Positions 5,384-37,930 of a DNA stretch of 64,000 nt are shown here, in pieces; within the stretch, counting starts at the first letter, position 1, and every line of letters begins with the position of its first letter. The position numbers and the translations under genes were made by a program. The notes below the pieces were generated by a model. The model had not been told where the DNA came from. It was given only the letters and a program-made list of their open reading frames with translations, and ran no database searches. This DNA comes from an uncultured Verrucomicrobiae bacterium (GTDB taxonomy: Bacteria > Verrucomicrobiota > Verrucomicrobiia > Limisphaerales > Palsa-1400). The stretch covers positions 576,001-640,000 of the forward strand of contig CAVPOM010000018.1 of assembly GCA_963707025.1 (NCBI GenBank). The letters run 5' to 3'.

Positions 5384-6877
5384 TGAGGTGGACCCCATCC
5401 TTTAGACCACGGAGCGCATGAAATAAGCGCGACTTTTGCCGATTGCTGTCATTACTAATTGTAGTTGACTACTGTTCATTCCGTGTTTCAAAACCCTTTC
5501 GAAAAGAGAGAACGAGCGATGCGGAGCACTGCCCGTCCTCCCTCTCCGTTTTCTTAGGGTTCTCAACTCTACCGCCGCAGGCGGTCTGATTTCAAGCCTT
5601 TTCCTGCCGCCTGCCTCTCTGTCAAGTGCTGCGATCGCTCCTGCCTCTGGCAGGTTGCATCGCTTCCCATTTGGCCGGTTGGGCTCCATGCGTGCCGGGA
5701 TCAAAATACGCGTCCGCCGGCGTCGCATAGCCCAACGCCTGGTGCGGTCGTTCCCGGTTGTAGCCGTCAAACCACCGGCCCAGTCCGCGCCCTGCCGCCA
5801 ACCCGTCGCCATAGTCTTGCAAATAAATGTCCTCATACTTGGCGCTCCGCCACAGCCGCTCGATAAACCGGTTGTCCATCCAGCGACCCCGTCCGTCCAT
5901 GCTCACGTCCACCCCCGCCGATTCCACCGCATCGATAAACATCGGGGAGGTGAACTGCGATCCCTGGTCGGTATTGGAAATCAACGGCGCCTGACGCCCC
6001 GCCCGCAACGCCGCCTCCCAAGCGTCCACACAAAAGTCCGCCTCCAACGTGTTGCTCAAGCGCCATCCCAGCACGTAACGACTCCACCAATCCATCACCG
6101 CCACCAAATACATAAACCCAGTTGCCATAGGCACATACGTAATGTCCGAACACCAAACCTGATCCGGTCCCGTCACTGCCAAATTGCGTAACAGATACGG
6201 ATAAATCTGGTGCCCCATCTCCCGCAGACTCGTCTTGGGCTTGGCGTAAATCGCCTCGATCCCCATCAACCGCAGCAGCCGCACCACCCGTTTGCGATTG
6301 ATGGTCAAACCCTCCCGGCGCAACAGCACGGTCAGTTTGCGGCTGCCATAAACCGGGTGGTCCAAATGCATCTGGTCCAACCGCCGCATCAGCGCCAGGT
6401 TCTCCTCTGTCTCCGGACAGCACTGGTAATAATAACTGCCACGGCACACCGCCAGCAGCTCGCACTGGCGCCGCACGCTGAGCTGCGGATCGGGAGCGAT
6501 TAAACATGTTAAAGCCCCAGTTGCCTGGACTTTTTTTTAAGCCAGTCCAAGTCCACCGTCAGTTGGCCAATCTTCTCATGCAGTTGGGCAATCAACTGTT
6601 CCTGATCCTCCGTGCGGGGTTGCCCGGGCTCAAACAATTCGGGCATGTGATCCCGAATCGTCGCCCGCCACTGCGTGACCTGCGCCGGATGCACCGCATA
6701 CTCTCGCGCCAATTGCGCGACCGTCTTCAGCCCCACCAGGGCTTCGAATCCCACTTTGGCCTTGAAGGCCGCACTGTGTCTTTTCCGTTTTGCTTTCATA
6801 AGTCTGCTCTTTCTTATCTACAGCAAACCGGCAAAAATCGAAACTTACCTGTGGTCTAAAAATAGGGGTCCAGCTCA
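5384..6877 (-). mobile_element. IS3-family insertion sequence, copy 1 (1494 bp)
   Basis: Imperfect 27-bp terminal IRs TGAG(G/C)TGGACCCC...TTTAGACCAC with TG...CA ends, CCC target duplication, orfA/orfB. Confidence 0.97.
5622..6799 (-). CDS. IS3 transposase OrfAB (orfA 6509-6799, orfB 5622-6476)
   Basis: HTH OrfA; rve motifs WCSDITY, NTDQGSQF and DNRFIERLWRSAKYE; A8G slippery site for a -1 frameshift. Confidence 0.95.
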
Positions 6878-7784: not shown

Positions 7785-9277
7785 TGAGCTGGACCCCTAT
7801 TTTTAGACCACAGGTAAGTTTCGATTTTTGCCGGTTTGCTGTAGATAAGAAAGAGCAGACTTATGAAAGCAAAACGGAAAAGACACAGTGCGGCCTTCAA
7901 GGCCAAAGTGGGATTCGAAGCCCTGGTGGGGCTGAAGACGGTCGCGCAATTGGCGCGAGAGTATGCGGTGCATCCGGCGCAGGTCACGCAGTGGCGGGCG
8001 ACGATTCGGGATCACATGCCCGAATTGTTTGAGCCCGGGCAACCCCGCACGGAGGATCAGGAACAGTTGATTGCCCAACTGCATGAGAAGATTGGCCAAC
8101 TGACGGTGGACTTGGACTGGCTTAAAAAAAAGTCCAGGCAACTGGGGCTTTAACATGTTTAATCGCTCCCGATCCGCAGCTCAGCGTGCGGCGCCAGTGC
8201 GAGCTGCTGGCGGTGTGCCGTGGCAGTTATTATTACCAGTGCTGTCCGGAGACAGAGGAGAACCTGGCGCTGATGCGGCGGTTGGACCAGATGCATTTGG
8301 ACCACCCGGTTTATGGCAGCCGCAAACTGACCGTGCTGTTGCGCCGGGAGGGTTTGACCATCAATCGCAAACGGGTGGTGCGGCTGCTGCGGTTGATGGG
8401 GATCGAGGCGATTTACGCCAAGCCCAAGACGAGTCTGCGGGAGATGGGGCACCAGATTTATCCGTATCTGTTACGCAATTTGGCAGTGACGGGACCGGAT
8501 CAGGTTTGGTGTTCGGACATTACGTATGTGCCTATGGCAACTGGGTTTATGTATTTGGTGGCGGTGATGGATTGGTGGAGTCGTTACGTGCTGGGATGGC
8601 GCTTGAGCAACACGTTGGAGGCGGACTTTTGTGTGGACGCTTGGGAGGCGGCGTTGCGGGCGGGGCGTCAGGCGCCGTTGATTTCCAATACCGACCAGGG
8701 ATCGCAGTTCACCTCCCCGATGTTTATCGATGCGGTGGAATCGGCGGGGGTGGACGTGAGCATGGACGGACGGGGTCGCTGGATGGACAACCGGTTTATC
8801 GAGCGGCTGTGGCGGAGCGCCAAGTATGAGGACATTTATTTGCAAGACTATGGCGACGGGTTGGCGGCAGGGCGCGGACTGGGCCGGTGGTTTGACGGCT
8901 ACAACCGGGAACGACCGCACCAGGCGTTGGGCTATGCGACGCCGGCGGACGCGTATTTTGATCCCGGCACGCATGGAGCCCAACCGGCCAAATGGGAAGC
9001 GATGCAACCTGCCAGAGGCAGGAGCGATCGCAGCACTTGACAGAGAGGCAGGCGGCAGGAAAAGGCTTGAAATCAGACCGCCTGCGGCGGTAGAGTTGAG
9101 AACCCTAAGAAAACGGAGAGGGAGGACGGGCAGTGCTCCGCATCGCTCGTTCTCTCTTTCGAAAGGGTTTTGAAACACGGAATGAACAGTAGTCAACTAC
9201 AATTAGTAATGACAGCAATCGGCAAAAGTCGCGCTTATTTCATGCGCTCCGTGGTCTAAAGGATGGGGTCCACCTCA
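7785..9277 (+). mobile_element. IS3-family insertion sequence, copy 2 (1493 bp)
   Basis: Near-identical inverted copy of 5384-6877, 1 bp shorter at a T tract; CAC target duplication at 7782-7784 and 9278-9280. Confidence 0.97.
7863..9040 (+). CDS. IS3 transposase OrfAB (orfA 7863-8153, orfB 8186-9040)
   Basis: Same proteins as copy 1. A -1 shift at CTTAAAAAAAAG (about 8121-8132) reads into orfB. Confidence 0.95.
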
Positions 9278-19834: not shown

Positions 19835-22258
19835 CTAACCACCGAACGCTGGGGACGCCGTGGACCATGGGGAAGGCCCGCACCGCTTGCCTGCGCCAAA
19901 CCAACTCCAGCACAGCCCGCAGACCATCAAGCCCAGCACGGACAGACACGCTCCCCAACGGAAGGCCAAGTCCTTGTAAACCAAGGTGATCTGGTGCCGG
20001 CCCGCCGGGGCCTCGACCGCTTGGAACGCCTCGTTGGCGCGCCATAATGGCACAGACTTGCCGTCCACGCTCGCTTTCCAATCATGATACCACGCCTGCG
20101 AAATGGATACCATGGCCGGACCGGGCGCCTCGACTTCCAGCACAATCCTGGCCGGGCTGAATTGTTGGGCGACCACCCGCGCCGCCTCCTGCCGTTGAGC
20201 GGTGATGGACGATTGCGCTTCCAGCGGCAGGTAAATGCTGGTGTGAAAGTCAATGGCGGGGTTGGCCAGTGCCTGCAAGGTCGCTTCTTCGCTGGCAAAG
20301 ACCGGCGCCTGCCCGGCCGTCAGCCACGGAATATAGGAAGGCCGCCGCACCCAGTCGAAAACTTTTCCCGGCGCAATGGTCTGGGAAACCGCCATGACAT
20401 CCTCCAATCCGGCCAGCCTGGCCTCCGCATTGATGTCAAAGAGGGAAAGAACTCTGTCAATCGGCCGCAAGTAAAGCGAGAAAAAGCCGTCCACCTTGGG
20501 CACGCCATCCAGCAGATTGCAGTTGGCCAAAAAGACCGACCGATTCAGCAAATAATTGGTCGCCATATCCGCCGCCGAATTGTAATACATCTGGTGGGCC
20601 GCGTAGGGGGACATCATGACCCGGGACTCTCCGGCCATGACCGGCCCCGTTTTAAAGATCCTTTCCAGCCCGGGCTGGTAAATGGAAGGAGCCACCGTCG
20701 GATTCTGCCAAGGCTCATGGGTCAGGACATCCAGCCAGCACATACCCAGCAAGGCCAGTCCGGTCCAGCCGCGCCAAGCCGGGCGGATGACCAGAAGATA
20801 AACCAGGCCGATTATCAAAATTAAGAAACCGGCCCGTTCCAATCCGTTGGCCGCCAGCTTCGCCCAAGGCAAGCCGCCGGCAGGCCACTGCCGGGCAAAC
20901 CAGAGGATCAGCCCAATCAGAACCAGCAGAGTGCAGCCGCAGGCCAAGTCCGGCCGCCACCAGCCCGGCCGGACCGGTTGCCAATTCTCGTATTGCCCGA
21001 TGGCCGCCGCCGCCAGCAGCGGCAGGGCGAAGATCGTGGCCAGAACAAACTTCACCGGATAACGGAACAGGCCCAAAAATGGGAAAAGATGCCGCAGCGG
21101 CGTGAACAAGAAACCCTGGTCGCCCAGCGCCAGAACCAGGCTCAGCCCCAGCACCACCCCGGGCAGCCAGACCCGCCAGGAGCGGCTGCGGCCCAGCGCC
21201 ATCACCGACAGAAAAACCGCGCCGGTCCCGGCATAATAAGAGGAGGTCCAGTGTTGATGCTCTTGCTGGATGATTTGCTGCCAGGGTGAAGTTTGGAAAA
21301 CGGGCACCAGAAAATTGGCCCAGCCGCACCCCGGCATGGACCAGGCGGAATTGCCAAACTGATTGCTCCGGTTGGAATGCAGGCTCAAATCCACGAACGG
21401 CAGCCATTGCGCCGCCGCCAGGCACAGCGCCAGGCAACCCACCCCAAAAAAACGGCGCGCCAAAATCAGGCGCGGCAACATATCGCTAAGAAAGGTAGGG
21501 CGGGCAGTCCTCTGCCCGCCGTCGGGGGCGGCGGGCAGGGGACTGCCCGCCCTACCACCCGCGGCCGATGAGGAACCAGACGCGAGAAGGGTTCCCTTGC
21601 CAAAGGAGAGCGCCGCCAGCGCGAACAGGAACAGCCAGGTCAGCAGGATGGTTTCCGGGCCGCCCGCCAGCACCTGCAACGCCGCCGCCAGCGCGGCCAG
21701 GATGATTTTGCGCCCGCCGCATTCCCAGGCCTCCTGGCCCAGCCAGATCACCCAGGGCATCAGGGCGAAGGTGGCGATATGACTGGGCCACATCAGGAAA
21801 TTGAGGGAAAGACCGTTGAAGGCAAAGAGCGTTCCGGCCACCGCCCCGCCCAAACGCGATCCGCTCCAGCGCGCCGCCAGAAAATACATGCCCAGACCCC
21901 CGAGAAAAAGATGCAGCAAACAAAAAAACGGCAGCGACCACGTCAGCGGCAACAGCAAATAGATCAACGAGGGCGGATACAGCGTCAGCGTGTTCAACTG
22001 GGCCAGAAAAGGCGTGCCGCAGCAACTGAGCGGATTCCACAGCGGCCATTCGCCCCGCCAAAAGCTCTCGCGGAAATAACCGGCGACCGGATAACTAAAA
22101 AGCCCGAAATCGCGCACCGCGAAGGTCTGCCCCCCTTGCAGCACCTCGCGGAACGGAATAAAAATCATCACCGCCAACAGCGCGGCAAACAGACCCGGCG
22201 ACCACCAGTTTTGGCCGGCGCTGGGAAGGCAAGGGGCGCATTTCACTTTTCCGGGCAT
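19835..22258 (-). CDS. YfhO-like polytopic membrane protein (GT-C glycosyltransferase-like)
   Basis: PLWNPLSCCGTPFLA, LYPP, FRYPVKF and C-terminal WYHDWKASVDG..RANEAFQAV..PAGRH motifs. Confidence 0.85.
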   Translation of the reverse strand: MPGKVKCAPCLPSAGQNWWSPGLFAALLAVMIFIPFREVLQGGQTFAVRDFGLFSYPVAGYFRESFWRGEWPLWNPLSCCGTPFLAQLNTLTLYPPSLIYLLLPLTWSLPFFCLLHLFLGGLGMYFLAARWSGSRLGGAVAGTLFAFNGLSLNFLMWPSHIATFALMPWVIWLGQEAWECGGRKIILAALAAALQVLAGGPETILLTWLFLFALAALSFGKGTLLASGSSSAAGGRAGSPLPAAPDGGQRTARPTFLSDMLPRLILARRFFGVGCLALCLAAAQWLPFVDLSLHSNRSNQFGNSAWSMPGCGWANFLVPVFQTSPWQQIIQQEHQHWTSSYYAGTGAVFLSVMALGRSRSWRVWLPGVVLGLSLVLALGDQGFLFTPLRHLFPFLGLFRYPVKFVLATIFALPLLAAAAIGQYENWQPVRPGWWRPDLACGCTLLVLIGLILWFARQWPAGGLPWAKLAANGLERAGFLILIIGLVYLLVIRPAWRGWTGLALLGMCWLDVLTHEPWQNPTVAPSIYQPGLERIFKTGPVMAGESRVMMSPYAAHQMYYNSAADMATNYLLNRSVFLANCNLLDGVPKVDGFFSLYLRPIDRVLSLFDINAEARLAGLEDVMAVSQTIAPGKVFDWVRRPSYIPWLTAGQAPVFASEEATLQALANPAIDFHTSIYLPLEAQSSITAQRQEAARVVAQQFSPARIVLEVEAPGPAMVSISQAWYHDWKASVDGKSVPLWRANEAFQAVEAPAGRHQITLVYKDLAFRWGACLSVLGLMVCGLCWSWFGAGKRCGPSPWSTASPAFGG
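21494..21556. repeat. GTAG-type REP palindrome inside a CDS
   Basis: GGTAGGGCGGGCAGTCC...GGACTGCCCGCCCTACC, same family as the core at 1111-1165. Confidence 0.85.
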
Positions 22259-32201: not shown

Positions 32202-32283
32202 GGCAATCCTGTGTTCGCTGACGGAAAAGTTGTAGCAGGAGCCGCCGATAAAAACCAGCCCCAATCGCGCCTGCCAAGTGAAA

Positions 32284-32389
32284 GCGCGCGTCTTGACACA
32301 ACCACCGTGCGCTTCTTCTCCCTCTCCTCCACGGACTTGTGGAGGAGAGGGTCGGGGTGAGGAGGTTTCCCTCTTTTTAGATGCGCCCC
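32284..32389. repeat. REP/MITE-like element with CCCTCTCC...GGAGAGGGTCGGGGTGAGG hairpin
   Basis: Ends GCGCGTCT...AGATGCGC; a related inverted copy lies at 37153-37207. Confidence 0.7.
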
Positions 32390-32406
32390 AAGTGAACCCA
32401 AAAACT

Positions 32407-32607
32407 ATGTTGACCCTGCACCCTGATATTCTGGTCAAGAACGGCAAAAAGCAATTCGCCGTCCTCCCCTACGAAGAATTCCTGGCCTTGCAAGAGCGGC
32501 TGGCGGACGCGGAAGACCTTTTGGAGTTGCGCAAGGCCAAACGCGCGGAAGGCCGAACCCGCTCGCTTTCCCTGGCTGAAGCAAAGCGTCAGTTGAGCGC
32601 TGCCTAG
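32407..32607 (+). CDS. Orphan Phd/YefM-like antitoxin
   Basis: KNGKKQFAVLPYEEFLALQERLADAEDLLELRKAK; no toxin ORF follows. Confidence 0.8.
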   Translation: MLTLHPDILVKNGKKQFAVLPYEEFLALQERLADAEDLLELRKAKRAEGRTRSLSLAEAKRQLSAA

Positions 32608-32795
32608 CCCTCCCGCCCGCCTCCGTCCTCCTCCCGCCGGCGGAATAAACACTCCAAAACTCTCCCCTCTCTCCACGTAGCGTTGCGCCTAAGGCGCAAG
32701 GGCGGATCATTCTTGAGAAAGAGACCGACGCCGGGAAACTCGTGGCGGCAGCGCCGCTACGGCGGGCAGACAGGGCGGGTATTGGGCGATCTGAT

Positions 32796-34169
32796 TTATT
32801 GCCTTCCCAGAATGTGTTTAGTTAGCGCAGTGATAGATCCTGCAACGGCAGCTTCAATGTCTTTCTGTAGGACAGAAGCATCGGGCCTCGTGTGACCCTG
32901 GTACCGTAAAACAACTGCTGGCTTGCTGCGCGGAGTATCCATTCCCAAACTAGTCACCCCTGCATCAACTGTTTGACGATAAACGACGCATTCTAATCCA
33001 TGAGCCGCAATCGAATAAATAAGCACCACGTTATGACCATAATTGCTAACACGCACTCTGAGCCTGCTTTCGCAGACCAGGTCCCCCTCCAAAAACTTTC
33101 CATTCCCTCGGACAATGGGAACGGCCTGTTCGAGTGAGAATCCCCCAGACTTCGCAAGCATTTGGTTTATCTTTCCCAGATAAGGAGTCAGAAACCCCGA
33201 CATGAAAACAACTTGAAAAAAATCAGAGAGTTGGGTTAGCCTGTCATTCTTCTTCAGCGCAGCAGTCTCTCGCGCCGCGACGGCTTCCAAGTCTTCGGAA
33301 GGTTGGCCTGATGGTGGCGAGATTACTTCCTCGAGACGTTTGACCAATTCTTCAACAGTCTGAAAGCGGAGATCAAGTTCATAACTCAACCCCCTGTCCA
33401 AGAGGGCGTTAAGAAAGGCGAGTTGAATTGGATCTTGAACCCTTTTGTCAATCGAATAGTTGGGTGAGCGATGGGGAGGCCGGCCTTGGGAATCTCGCAG
33501 GTTTCTGGGACAGCATTGAGTGAGGCAGTACAACAAAATGCCGCAAAGCCCCGTCAGATCGGAGCGAAAATCTCGCTTGTTCTCACCAGGGCCGCGGCGT
33601 TCTGGCAGACTCAAGAATTTATTGTCCAATGTTTCATCCGTATCGGTGCGGTTGACATTATCATCTTGGTTGAAGGATAGCCCGAAATCCACCATCACCG
33701 CGTCCACGGGTACGAGCCCCCGAATGATAATGTTTTCAGGCTTAATGTCCCGATGCGCGATTCCTGCATTAACGGCCAAACGAACCGTGCAGCACAAATC
33801 GAGCACAACGTGGACGGCTGTCCCGACCAACATGGGTCCAGCTTTGATAACGTCAGCCAAAGTTTTGCCCTCAATCAACTCCATCACAAAATAAAGCGGA
33901 CAACTCGGATCCTCGAATTTCTCGGTGTTGTCTTCCAGGACCTTCGGCACTTTGCCGCCAGCATTATGAAGAACTTTGAGGTTGATTACTTCTTGCGCCA
34001 TTCTTCCGCGTGCTTTGCCATCTCTTGCCTTATGAGCTTTGAGCAGTTTGAGGACTGCTCGGGCAGGTTCGCCTGATACTGATTTCACGAGGAAAGTGTC
34101 CCCCTGACCGCCCCCATCGAGCGGCGCGATTTCGTTCCACTTTTCATTCCAAGGGCCATTTCCGATCAT
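32796..34169 (-). CDS. Hanks-type Ser/Thr protein kinase with an unknown C-terminal domain
   Basis: GGGQG, AVLKLLK, HRDIKPEN, DFG and LPE motifs; no obvious TM. The start may be GTG at 34187. Confidence 0.93.
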   Translation of the reverse strand: MIGNGPWNEKWNEIAPLDGGGQGDTFLVKSVSGEPARAVLKLLKAHKARDGKARGRMAQEVINLKVLHNAGGKVPKVLEDNTEKFEDPSCPLYFVMELIEGKTLADVIKAGPMLVGTAVHVVLDLCCTVRLAVNAGIAHRDIKPENIIIRGLVPVDAVMVDFGLSFNQDDNVNRTDTDETLDNKFLSLPERRGPGENKRDFRSDLTGLCGILLYCLTQCCPRNLRDSQGRPPHRSPNYSIDKRVQDPIQLAFLNALLDRGLSYELDLRFQTVEELVKRLEEVISPPSGQPSEDLEAVAARETAALKKNDRLTQLSDFFQVVFMSGFLTPYLGKINQMLAKSGGFSLEQAVPIVRGNGKFLEGDLVCESRLRVRVSNYGHNVVLIYSIAAHGLECVVYRQTVDAGVTSLGMDTPRSKPAVVLRYQGHTRPDASVLQKDIEAAVAGSITALTKHILGRQ

Positions 34170-34789
34170 CGGGTAATTGTATGGCACCGACTCCCAATTG
34201 CCAGTTGATTTCTGTGAAGCGTTCGGAGCGGAAAGACCAGGCAAAAAGAAAAGTGGAAACGCGGTCAGGACTCACACGGCCACGGCACGGGTGCATGTTT
34301 GAAAACATTTTGATTTACGTGGAGTCAAGTTCTTAGACGTTCAATCCACCCAGCGATTTCGTCACGCCGCTCTTGCGTCCGGAGTTCCGAGGAACCAGCC
34401 GGGAATCTGTCCAAGATTCCTTGGAGAATCCGAGCCTGAACATCCGGTGGACTCTCGGTAAGAATCTTGATGAAGCGCACGCGTGTTGTTCCGTCGTAGT
34501 TAAATGGATCGATATCCAGATCGAGGTCAACGTAAAAGTCATGGTGTGTTCGATAGCTGAAGTCGCCGAGATAGCCACTGCTCACTCCGATGTAGCGGTT
34601 CACAAGTTTATTGACTTCCAACCGCGTCAACGGTCCACTCGGACTCGAGCACTCGTTCGTGTTCGGCGCGCTGAATGAGTTGGCGGTCGTTTCAGTGCGT
34701 GGGGACGCACTTCGCACGTTGGCGACTTCCACCATCAGCACGCGCTTCAGAATGTGTAATGCGCCGATTCCTGGCGAATAGAGCTCCTT

Positions 34790-36240
34790 CACAGCCATCC
34801 CACAGGAAATTGGAAAAAAGTGTTGGCTTGACCATTTGAACCTGCCACAAGGCAGGCATGAAAAACAAAAAAATCAAACCGACACGGTCCCGGTTTAACG
34901 TTTTGCGCCAGATTTGCAATCTCATTCCTGCGCATGAAGTCTCCAAAATAGCGCGGGAGACCGGGGCTCTGGATAAGTCGCGCACCTTCAGTCCGTGGAG
35001 TCACACGGTCAGTTTGCTGGACGCGCAACTCACCCATTGCATCGGACTCAACGATCTGTGCGACTCGCTGCAATTGCATTCCGGGCCGCTGTCCACTTTG
35101 CGCGGCGCCAGCGCCCCCAGCCGCAACGGCCTCTCCCACGCCAACCGGGAGCGTCCGGCCCAGATGGCCGAACAACTCTTCTGGCGGGTCCTGGAGCATT
35201 TGAAAGCACAGACGCCCGGCTTTGCCGCGGGCCAGCGCCGTGGCCCCGCCTTCCGTTTCAAGATGCCCATCCATGTGATTGATAGCACGACCATGGAACT
35301 GGTGGCCAACTGCCTGGACTGGGCCAAGCACCGCCGGCGCAAGGCCGCCGCCAAAACCCATATGCGGTTGAATCTGCAGAATCTTTTGCCCGGTTTTGTC
35401 ATTGTGGACACTGCCGCCGAGCACGACAACCGACGGGCGCGGGAACTGTGCGCCGACTTGAAGAGCGGCGAAATCGCCTTGTTCGACAAGGGTTATGTGG
35501 ACTTCGGCCACTTGCGGGATTTGGACGGGCGCGGGGTCTTTTGGGTGACGCGGGCCAAGGAGAACATGGGCTATGAGGTGGTGCGGAAAATGCCCGCCTC
35601 CAGAGACCCGAAGATTTTGCGCGACGAAGTGATCGTCCTGAGCAACGAGAACAAACCCGCGCCGGAGTTGATGCGCCGGGTGGTGGCGCTGGTCGAGATT
35701 GATGGAGAGGAACGGGAAATGACCTTCCTGACCAACAACCTGGAGTGGAGTCCGCGCAGCGTGGCCGACCTTTACCGCTGCCGCTGGCAGATCGAAGTCT
35801 TCTTCAAACAAATCAAGCAGACCTTGCAGTTGGCGGATTTTCTGGGCCACAACGCCAACGCCGTGCGCTGGCAGGTGTGGACGGCGCTGTTGACCTACGT
35901 GCTGTTGCGCTACCTCAGTCACCTCTCCAACTGGGCGCACAGCTTCACCCGGCTGTTCACGATTTTGCGGGCGGCGCTCTGGGAGAAATATGATCTGCTC
36001 AATTTGCTGGCGTGCTATGGGACAGCAGGCGGCAGCTTTCGCCACTTGGCGCGGCCCGAGCAGGCGTATTTCCCCGGCTTCCAATAAAGCTATGGGACAG
36101 CACACGCGCCCAAACAGGCGCATACCAAACCCAAAAGCCAAACTCGGAAAAATCAAAATCTCATTTTACCCCGAAGACCAATTAAACCCTTGCAAATGAA
36201 CAGGTCAGCACCAGACTTTTCCCCTTATGAGACGGGTGTG
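34790..36240 (+). mobile_element. IS4-family insertion sequence (1451 bp)
   Basis: Imperfect IRs CACAGCCATCCCACAGG / CACACCCGTCTCATAAG (reverse complement); direct repeat GAGCTCCTT at 34781-34789 and 36241-36249. Confidence 0.92.
34858..36087 (+). CDS. IS4-family DDE transposase
   Basis: IDSTT, HD, FDKGY and YRCRWQIEVFFKQIKQ (YREK signature). Confidence 0.96.
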   Translation: MKNKKIKPTRSRFNVLRQICNLIPAHEVSKIARETGALDKSRTFSPWSHTVSLLDAQLTHCIGLNDLCDSLQLHSGPLSTLRGASAPSRNGLSHANRERPAQMAEQLFWRVLEHLKAQTPGFAAGQRRGPAFRFKMPIHVIDSTTMELVANCLDWAKHRRRKAAAKTHMRLNLQNLLPGFVIVDTAAEHDNRRARELCADLKSGEIALFDKGYVDFGHLRDLDGRGVFWVTRAKENMGYEVVRKMPASRDPKILRDEVIVLSNENKPAPELMRRVVALVEIDGEEREMTFLTNNLEWSPRSVADLYRCRWQIEVFFKQIKQTLQLADFLGHNANAVRWQVWTALLTYVLLRYLSHLSNWAHSFTRLFTILRAALWEKYDLLNLLACYGTAGGSFRHLARPEQAYFPGFQ

Positions 36241-37152
36241 GAGCTCCTTCAAATTGGTTTCGGTGACTTTCAACTTTGAGCCATCTTGCCAGAAGGCGTA
36301 GGCCGAATTCGCCAATCGCTTGTACGCTTCGAAGTCGATCTTTCGCGCAGTCGCAGCGAGGCAAAGGATTTCGTGGGCATGGTTGAAGCCTCGCAACCAC
36401 TCGCCGTCAATTTGCCAAGCCTGTTCAGCGGCACTCTTTGGCGACATGAGGAACACGGTGTCGAATCCCGCAAGGCAGTGGATGATCTGGTTACAATAAG
36501 CCAGAAGTTCTTCCGCGCTTGCCCTCGCATATCCTGAGATCAGGTTTTCGTCTCCTTGGTTAGCGGAGGCGCAGATACCACGGTAATGGTCGTTGTCTGA
36601 TAGTGGCCACGTTTCTGGTTGACGGCAGGCTTCGAGGAGTTTCGGATAATCCTGCTCGCGGTCTGCCGCGAGCCAGTTGATGTAAAGGAATTGCGCCAGG
36701 GAGCCTTTGATGGGGGCTTTGTCGAGCCGAAGAGGGATGAAACGGCGCTCCTTGTTCAGCGGGTCGCGAAACCGGAAGGTGCCGGCCTCCAACTGCGCCC
36801 AGTCGGAGCCGAACGCATTCGCCGACATGCAGAGCACGAGCACGCGCGAGTGCTCCAGTCCTTCCTCGATCTTCGCCGGGATGCTGTCGCCTGGTTTTAG
36901 CACCCAGTCATCAAGCCAAACCTTCAGCCCGTCGTTCCTCAACCGCTCCGCGACATCACGAACAACCGCTTTTTCCTTCGTGCTGTGGCTCAGGAAAACA
37001 TCATATTGGAAATCCAAGGACACGATTTGATATTATGGCTGTGCATGTAGTTGGCAAGGAATTCAGTATGCGCCGTTTTTTAAGATTGGTCATTGATGTG
37101 AGCGAAATAAACCGGTCTCGCCTCACGGCATTTTTGTGGTTATTTCCATAAA

Positions 37153-37207
37153 CCCTCACCTCACCCTGACCCTCTCCCCTCCCATCGGATGGGAGCGGAG
37201 AGGGAAC
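37153..37207. repeat. REP-like hairpin CCTCACCCTGACCCTCTCC...GGAGAGGG
   Basis: Same family as 32320-32362, opposite orientation. Confidence 0.7.
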
Positions 37208-37930
37208 AGGCGACGGACACGAATTCTTCCACGGAGGTCTGTCGAGCGACGGCAGATTGGTGGACACCTGCCAGAAATATAATATGCCCCCTCCGTTGAC
37301 TCGGTTGCCTCCGGTTGCATCCCCTGTTCTTCCTTCTGCCTTGATACTTTCTCCCCTTTCCCCCTTGACACCACCTGGGTTAAATGCTAATTTGGCATAG
37401 TGAGAAGAGGGAAGGTGCCAGTGGAATCAGACGGGGACGGAAGCAAGACAGGCTTCCGCCAGCTAAGAATTCAACAGAAGCAATCGAAGTTTTCCCTTCC
37501 CTCTCCCCGGTCCTCCGTCCAGTCCTCCGAACTGTCCGCCACAGCCTTGGCGAAGGTGGAAGCTTTAGCGGTGGTGGAAGGCCCGGCGAAGGTGCAAGGC
37601 CCGGCGCAGGAGGATGCATTTGTCCCGCGCCGGTCAAACCGGTCAAACCCATCGCTGTCCAGCAACGTGAGCGATAAAAATGTGGAAGACCCTCACCTGC
37701 AAGGTGTTGCTGAGTCATTGGGATGTGATCGAAGCAGTCGCGGTCAAACCCAGTCAAACCATGTTTTCAACCTTGACCATGTCCTCCCTGTTGTCCGCCA
37801 TGATTTTAGCCACGGCGGAAGATTTGGGGTCGGAGGAGTCAAGTCGCGACTTCGCTCTGCTCTTTTTGACTTGTCTGCCGATCTCCGATGCAACATGGTT
37901 TTTGCCAGCGTGACTTAATCCGACTTTGCG

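Follow-up and report, generated by a model that had tools for sequence, protein, structure and literature searches.

Introduction

Fusions of AbiJ-type N-terminal domains (NTDs) with TIR domains, predicted in 2013, and the Ser/Thr kinase PD-T4-6 are already known; genes related to both lie side by side in a 64,000-nucleotide (nt) stretch of DNA, hereafter the window, from an uncultured Verrucomicrobiae bacterium (assembly GCA_963707025.1, here G000; contig CAVPOM010000018.1, positions 576,001 to 640,000). An earlier note on this DNA had proposed an undescribed two-gene TIR/kinase defence system. We consider it probable instead that the locus holds two separately acquired defence-type genes: one that belongs to a modular family of the order TIR–variable middle–Abi-NTD (TIR–X–NTD), predicted when intact to be a one-protein NAD-cleaving effector and here split by an insertion sequence (IS) of the IS4 family, and an intact kinase of PD-T4-6 type that likely acts alone.

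AbiJ-NTD2, 3, and 5 have been reported in fusion with TIR domains, and AbiJ-NTDs have been proposed as phage sensors or toxin-restraining antitoxins on swappable toxin domains, TIR included (Anantharaman et al. 2013, PMC3710099). Abi_C (PF14355) was shown to be a HEPN RNase required for defence (SadR, PMC13590631); 2,257 of 2,815 Abi_C proteins in that source have no recognised NTD. The C-terminal domain of the window protein is elsewhere the N-terminal or central domain of Abi_C proteins; the window protein itself has no HEPN domain, carries the domain last and not first, and belongs to a family with a variable middle between TIR and NTD. The closest solved TIR sequences are those of the NADases AbTir, BtTir, and PdTir (PDB 7UWG, 8G83, 7UXR, 3H16), which share the WxxxE motif; in AbTir, E208 of this motif is required for NAD+ cleavage (PMC10641520). 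In the window protein the TIR domain comes first, ahead of a helical bundle and the Abi-type domain, and its NADase activity is putative. TIR–WD40–Roc–COR–DUF4365 proteins (ROCO/AP-GTPase; AP-GTPase plus COR noted as conflict effectors, PMC7159879) carry a TIR head of the same clade, 72–85% identical in loci L002, L198, L199, L204, and L205, whereas the window gene has no WD40, Roc, COR, or DUF4365. With Thoeris, the TIR effectors of CBASS and Pycsar, and SPARTA, the likeness is confined to the TIR fold: PADLOC matches lie within residues 4–111, NCBIfam scores are far below cut-off, and the insert holds no ThsA, cyclase, SAVED/STING, or Argonaute gene.

The prototype of PD-T4-6 (Vassallo et al. 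2022, PMC9519451; Escherichia coli UMB0949 RRM76169.1; models PDLC04039–04064) is a validated defence gene, a Ser/Thr kinase in a single coding sequence (Tables S1 and S2 of that paper). It resembles the window kinase as a stand-alone Hanks kinase of ~440–460 amino acids (aa) with an extra C-terminal domain and a sporadic, mobile distribution. Its mutagenesis primer (Table S8) encodes RAFL-A-VLKSQKD, the counterpart of RAVLKLLK around K41 in the window; the mutant is labelled 'PD-T4-6B K101A' (Table S6), a numbering not reconciled with window K41. Named systems were checked with PADLOC hidden Markov models and NCBIfam. As the earlier note had supposed, no named system with the TIR–X–NTD architecture was found in PADLOC, NCBIfam, or the open-access papers searched. 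That literature yielded no description of the TIR-first/NTD-last order, of a TIR/kinase pair, or of tandem TIR-headed loci, which the supplements of the 2013 and 2020 papers may list; the TIR–X–NTD family is unnamed.

Results

Reconstruction of the split gene

The TIR open reading frame (ORF) and the 157-aa ORF beside it are one 412-aa gene split by an IS4 element, as the earlier note had recognised. Two 9-bp direct copies of GAGCTCCTT, spaced 1460 nt (Table 1), enclose an element of 1451 bp, whose ends are imperfect inverted repeats and which encodes a 409-aa IS4 transposase (NF033592, 251.5 bits against an NCBIfam cut-off of 115). G000 holds 44 near-full copies, mutually 99.8–100% identical, 38 of them with an exact 9-bp target duplication; the duplications and the near-identity make the element ends and the duplication length certain, and the near-identity indicates recent insertion by an expanding IS. 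Some copies in G000 are nested, or broken by other elements. The copies prefer flanks of lower G+C content (GC) genome-wide (median 52.7% vs 60.2%), so that the suggestion of an IS specifically masking this locus was not borne out.

With the IS removed in silico, a single frame of 412 codons runs from 37023 to 34325, the junction falling at codon 261 between TETNLKEL and YSPGIGALH. Intact database homologues have 412 (P0002), 408 (P0003), 412 (P0004), 427 (P0006), and 405 aa (P0010); all five align without gaps over residues 245–280, that is, across the IS break, which is independent evidence that the halves were one gene. Identity to these five is 77–84% in the TIR domain, 64–76% in the middle, and 78–89% in the C-terminal domain. 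The homologues share the end point IxRLRA-stop with the split gene, whose end is therefore native. No contig from three soil DNA sequencing runs bridges the insertion site, the locus being covered in short pieces.

Domains of the TIR–X–NTD protein

Residues 9–129 match Pfam TIR_2 (94 bits, cut-off 28; E 1.3e-26), and the nearest solved TIR sequences are BtTir, AbTir, and PdTir (E 1e-14 to 8e-13). W75 and E79 line up with their WxxxE, so that both TIR fold and motif are present and the catalytic glutamate named in the earlier note is placed at E79. The middle (residues ~138–290) is a helical bundle in the P0002 model (pLDDT 81); it occurs in 24 representatives, has no family name, and gave generic helical-bundle matches only in a fold search (Z at most 9.1) and no usable match in an Atlas feature search. 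As a mobile module (P0221–P0241), it is elsewhere fused to a Mrr-type nuclease, a C-terminal TIR, ORF6C, a hydrophobic tail, or unknown parts.

A search with the last ~100 aa matched 266 longer proteins; 120 of these are listed and are the basis of the domain-order counts, P0023 having been reassigned by hand into the TIR-head–X–NTD class. Of these 120, 82 have Abi_C behind the domain, 20 belong to the TIR-head–X–NTD class, 16 have other tails (a C-terminal TIR in 12), and 2 are partial. RN-x3-5-H is kept in 79 of the 82 listed NTD+Abi_C proteins, which are mostly 56–75% identical to the split gene's domain over the NTD. These alignments confirm, as the earlier note had suggested, that the domain is the NTD of Abi_C/AbiJ-type HEPN RNases with its position reversed, here C-terminal and without the RNase; neither PF14355 nor a PADLOC AbiJ model matches the split protein, and its frame, like those of the intact homologues, ends directly behind the NTD. 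X, the part between TIR and NTD, spans 13–251 aa in the family and is a bare linker, the helical bundle described above, a PF18185 domain (STALD/SLOG), or another unnamed domain.

A second unnamed domain of ~125 aa precedes the NTD in ~380-aa Abi_C and X–NTD–TIR proteins (P0007, P0013, P0015, P0028, and relatives). In a quick NTD tree of few columns, TIR-head and NTD–TIR forms are intermixed. The NTD profile found no match among solved-structure sequences (best E 0.089), and fold searches with full-length models were dominated by TIR and kinase matches. Membership in AbiJ_NTD5 (PF18865) was considered and rejected: 0 of 79 aligned members match any Pfam AbiJ_NTD model, and the genome has no match at E ≤ 10; the Atlas feature similarity of 0.92 between the NTD and AbiJ_NTD5, with PF18865 on 38% of members, is a lead only.

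Maintenance of the family

GS[DE]WxxxE is kept in 19 of the 20 listed TIR-head–X–NTD fusions, the exception being a partial protein, and the stop of nearly all 20 is at a common point, give or take a few residues; the 412-aa architecture recurs at 70–95% identity. In the TIR head, codon positions 1 and 2 are 93% identical and position 3 is 68–69% identical; in the NTD, codons with synonymous changes only and codons with amino acid changes stand at 22:16 and 30:11. Purifying selection on TIR head and NTD is the reading given to these codon patterns.

The kinase

Six PADLOC PD-T4-6 models match the kinase at E 3.6e-92 to 5.7e-63, the next model at 5.8e-31, and a PknB-type NCBIfam model gives 66 bits against a cut-off of 450; the kinase is therefore placed in the PD-T4-6 subfamily and not among generic Hanks kinases. 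The catalytic residues K41, E60, HRD139–141, and DFG161–163 are present; K41, E60, R140, D141, K143, N146, and D161 are invariant in 47 kinase sequences. PDLC04056 covers residues 31–422 of the 482-aa kinase ORF; searched separately, the final 154 aa gave no match to PADLOC or Pfam models. The protein is predicted from its model to be soluble. The description in the earlier note of a soluble-type Hanks kinase, downstream on the same strand and with an unfamiliar C-terminus, agrees with the intact motifs and with the alpha/beta C-terminal domain, which is unnamed; the gap of about 150 bp holds for the ATG at 34169 of the 457-aa database start (155 nt from the stop), but shrinks to 80 nt if the 482-aa ORF with its TTG start is taken. 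With its frame intact, the kinase is likely, by analogy with the prototype, a stand-alone defence gene.

Neighbours differ at each of the nine kinase-subfamily loci read, none being TIR or NTD, which fits a single-gene PD-T4-6 without a fixed partner. One kinase relative adjoins a SIR2-like gene (L210:4877-6100), another an SMI1/KNR4-like ORF (L296:7848-8159). Two PD-T4-6-type kinases were found among 80 kept loci of viral contigs (the other 78, weak generic matches, were dropped) and two kinases on plasmids; phages gave no kinase match at 1e-15.

Co-occurrence of the two genes

The reciprocal comparison comprised 11 non-redundant TIR–X–NTD loci, with 1.05–8.0 kb downstream of each (duplicates L087, L114, L164, and L173 left out), and the nine kinase-subfamily loci. 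The kinase is found in 0 of the 11, and TIR, middle, or NTD in 0 of the 9. Among 250 order genomes (one sample), 14 have the TIR head and 1 the kinase, with no overlap; among 30 family genomes, G005 has the kinase and G024 the NTD; among 400 class genomes, 3 have the kinase and 0 the NTD; and 0 of 5 genomes picked for the NTD have the kinase. G000 is the sole genome with both genes in the family, order, and class samples. A kinase of any kind occurs in 2 of 160 NTD loci (L053, L133), 27% identical and 2.5–7 kb off; no kinase was found in a 351-genome sample around G620, no NTD relative in viral contigs, and no P0002 match at 1e-15 on plasmids. The two-gene TIR/kinase reading is thereby already largely refuted: the pair never stands together in the samples drawn, and the kinase, far from lying outside the named systems as had been expected of the pair, matches the named single-gene PD-T4-6 and has a promoter-like element of its own.

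Modular TIR-headed loci

A second TIR head starts exactly 22 nt past the stop in 4 of the 11 TIR–X–NTD loci; a DUF4365 remnant is next, or one gene on, in 4, and something else follows in 3. The TIR head is also the N-terminus of TIR–WD40–Roc–COR–DUF4365 proteins of 1,090–1,400 aa. TIR–WD40–Roc comes after the 412-aa TIR–middle–NTD protein of L082 (= P0246), and 19 nt separate a related X–NTD–TIR gene of L002 from the complete, 1164-aa TIR–WD40–Roc–DUF4365 gene behind it (L002:8857-12348), among whose WD40 repeats a LuxR-type helix-turn-helix was also seen. Seven of 18 order-sample loci found via the TIR head alone run into WD40/Roc and 4 hold at least two heads; at least two heads were seen in 10 of the 32 loci examined overall, and one more TIR–WD40 locus, a broken one, came from a 251-genome sample. 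Among the cargo that stands behind heads or between them are iSTAND, patatin, ORF6C, PLD, YhcG nuclease, and AAA ATPases. Many of the heads are broken. Of three pairs of adjacent heads, one consists of mutual best matches (L082, 92.9%, rank 3 of 190 pairs); those in L081 and L001 rank 28 and 58 of 190. The locus looks like a fast-turnover type with a constant TIR 5' end.

After the second TIR gene of L081 a third TIR start of ~9 codons is followed by unrelated sequence (L081:2795-2900), which hints at a breakpoint at the extreme 5' end of the head.

The insert

In G017, of the same genus, moxR and tlyA are 432 bp apart, and DNA similarity to the window ends at 32275 and restarts at 37840; the stretch between is therefore an insert (Table 1), whose boundaries rest on G017, the other 4 of 5 genus genomes not showing both flanks together. 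Its sole contents are the TIR gene, the IS, the kinase, and a small ORF resembling an antitoxin; remnants of a TIR or of DUF4365 were not seen next to either defence-type gene. That ORF (32407-32607, + strand) is Phd/YefM-like (Pfam E 2e-4, below cut-off) and converges on the kinase; no adjacent toxin gene was seen.

Both genes are below the backbone in GC, as the earlier note had stated: 50.4% in the kinase and 55.2% in the TIR gene against a genome median of 60.6%, that is, within the lowest 1.0% and 8.6%, respectively, of 4960 genome windows. GC at third codon positions (GC3) differs between them (0.52 vs 0.59–0.68). A REP-like core with 55 copies in the genome occurs only twice in the window, flanking the two genes, and the pair may mark or mediate insertion. 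Each gene is preceded by a promoter-like element whose -10 hexamer ends 6 nt before the start, the peak offset genome-wide (55 of 2816 ORFs vs 8–31 at other offsets), which suggests separate leaderless transcripts. The TANNNT peak 6 nt before first ATGs in G000 (55/2816) in itself suggests a class of leaderless mRNAs.

Table 1 Features of the insert, by position in the window. 
Feature	Position	Strand	Basis
Accessory insert, ~5.6 kb including the IS, between moxR and tlyA	32276..37839		G017 comparison
REP-like repeat core, left; inverted pair with 37159-37177	32344..32362	-	Genome repeat search
Hanks-type kinase, 457 aa, PD-T4-6 subfamily: kinase domain 1-285, helical linker, unnamed alpha/beta C-terminal domain 344-456	32796..34169	-	PDLC04049 E 3.6e-92; model pLDDT 89.5; PknB Z 24.6, root-mean-square deviation 3.0, 249 aligned
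Promoter-like CTGGCA-17-TACAAT, -10 ending 6 nt before kinase ATG; predicted own leaderless promoter	34176..34204	-	Promoter scan
Split gene, 3' part: end of middle, linker, ~100-aa Abi_C-associated NTD-type domain (34328-34633), ending IxRLRA-stop	34325..34780	-	Homologue alignments
Target-site duplication, left copy	34781..34789	+	Repeat comparison
IS4-family element, 1451 bp; transposase 34858-36087, opposite to host gene	34790..36240	+	Inverted ends, NF033592, genome copies
Target-site duplication, right copy	36241..36249	+	Repeat comparison
Split gene, 5' part: TIR head (residues 9-129, W75, E79) and most of helical middle	36250..37023	-	TIR_2 E 1.3e-26; AbTir/BtTir/PdTir alignments; middle in 24 representatives
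Promoter-like TTGCCA-16-TAATAT, -10 ending 6 nt before TIR-gene GTG; predicted leaderless start	37030..37057	-	Promoter scan; same hexamers and spacing before L114 homologue
REP-like repeat core, right	37159..37177	+	Genome repeat search

Discussion

That the two genes nevertheless form a coupled system, with the kinase activating the TIR protein or activated by it, would suit their position on one strand, 155 nt apart, in one low-GC insert missing from G017 and with no terminator-like site between them; AbiJ-NTD1 and NTD3 have moreover been reported in fusion with protein kinases (PMC3710099), so that links of NTD and kinase are possible in principle. The reciprocal counts of 0/11 and 0/9, the lack of any shared genome besides G000 in the family, order, and class samples, the promoter-like element of the kinase, the unlike GC and GC3 of the two genes, and the validation of the kinase subfamily as a single gene nevertheless make such coupling very unlikely. 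Nor do we give much credence to TIR–X–NTD fusions as functionless recombination by-products of a decaying hotspot. TIR heads are indeed often truncated or frameshifted (the second head of L001, L084, L197, L201–L203, L301), L003 has a premature stop, and the family is thinly spread (none of 400 class genomes has the NTD); yet 20 of the 120 listed homologues share this order, nearly all with a common stop, 19 of the 20 keep GS[DE]WxxxE, synonymous changes are in excess in NTD and TIR, and the same 412-aa architecture recurs at 70–95% identity, all of which renders decay a highly doubtful explanation.

The tandem loci invite a different account, in which TIR–X–NTD is the accessory sensor of a TIR-headed operon, typically one with TIR–WD40–Roc–COR–DUF4365, coupled to it by TIR–TIR contacts, the partner having been lost here and the kinase occupying the vacated slot. 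The second head that starts 22 nt beyond the stop in four of the 11 loci, the gene orders of L082 and L002, the DUF4365 remnants downstream in 4 of 11, and the mutual best match of the L082 heads agree with it, as does the homotypic coupling of duplicated domains on adjacent genes proposed by Kaur et al. 2020 (PMC7159879). We nevertheless think it unlikely: three of the 11 loci (L003, L006, L165) have no partner, nor has G000 with its single TIR head; L001 and L084 have a second head, but a broken one; the adjacent heads of L081 and L001 are not especially alike; and effector-associated domains have by definition no enzymatic role, whereas WxxxE is retained in this head. A wider and quite improbable proposal takes TIR head and promoter as what stays constant in an immune locus that otherwise diversifies: through recombination at the head, sensor cargo would be fused in frame (helical bundle, SLOG-type, patatin, iSTAND, or WD40–Roc–COR–nuclease, with or without Abi-NTD), tandem TIR-headed proteins would co-assemble into one NAD-cleaving filament that joins many sensors to a single effector, and the window gene would be one cassette.

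Two separately acquired genes, the reading we prefer, would work as follows. In the intact protein the C-terminal Abi-type domain would, by analogy, sense a phage component or hold the TIR enzyme off; upon infection the TIR heads are predicted to self-associate and cleave NAD+ via E79, leading to abortive infection. In this genome the IS severs the putative sensor domain from the TIR, and with the C-terminal domain cut off the function of the TIR protein is likely lost; the earlier view of a system disabled in this lineage thus holds for the IS-split TIR gene but not for the kinase, whose frame is intact. The kinase would be transcribed from its own predicted leaderless promoter, unaffected by the IS, and on infection would phosphorylate host or phage proteins as a stand-alone defence. 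TIR head and promoter would have their origin at the 5' end of a TIR–WD40–Roc–COR–DUF4365 locus with variable 3' cargo, and the kinase is likely a further gene that landed in such a site.

Several points weigh against this reading. The promoter scan as a whole is weak (4 sites vs 1.8 ± 1.3 in shuffles) and there is no terminator-like site between the two genes, so that co-transcription is still conceivable. In 8 of the 11 loci the TIR–X–NTD gene stands ahead of a further TIR head or of what is left of a ROCO gene, and it may therefore need a partner. The role given to the NTD is the 2013 proposal. The PADLOC PD-T4-6 models also tag a housekeeping-like PASTA kinase found in all Streptococcus thermophilus genomes (PMC11514479), and it is these models that place the window kinase in PD-T4-6, its C-terminal 154 aa matching none of the PADLOC or Pfam models. 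As to the counts, the exact middle domain is present in only 2 of the 11 loci (L081, L082) and nine kinase loci were read as against 100 close kinase proteins, both small samples, and the large genome searches scored the top few candidates per genome, many genomes being incomplete.

The specific claim of a new TIR/kinase system is to be dropped, and the kinase is assigned by prediction to a known family. Should the intact protein prove to be a sensor-gated NADase, the idea put forward in 2013, that Abi N-terminal domains serve as portable phage sensors, could be tested cleanly with it: one ~100-aa domain would control a HEPN RNase when placed ahead of it and a TIR when placed behind. The TIR–X–NTD family is a natural deletion series, from a 247-aa TIR–NTD minimum to forms of 485 aa, which makes the test cheap. 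Tandem TIR-headed loci could be an unrecognised route of diversifying bacterial immune receptors.

Other features of the window

An 807-aa ORF in an A-rich stretch (19835-22258, - strand) matches nothing in Pfam at 1e-8. Two rve/HTH_21 transposase ORFs, each of 284 aa and scoring identically in Pfam (5622-6476, - strand; 8186-9040, + strand), are inverted with respect to each other and possibly belong to a composite element.

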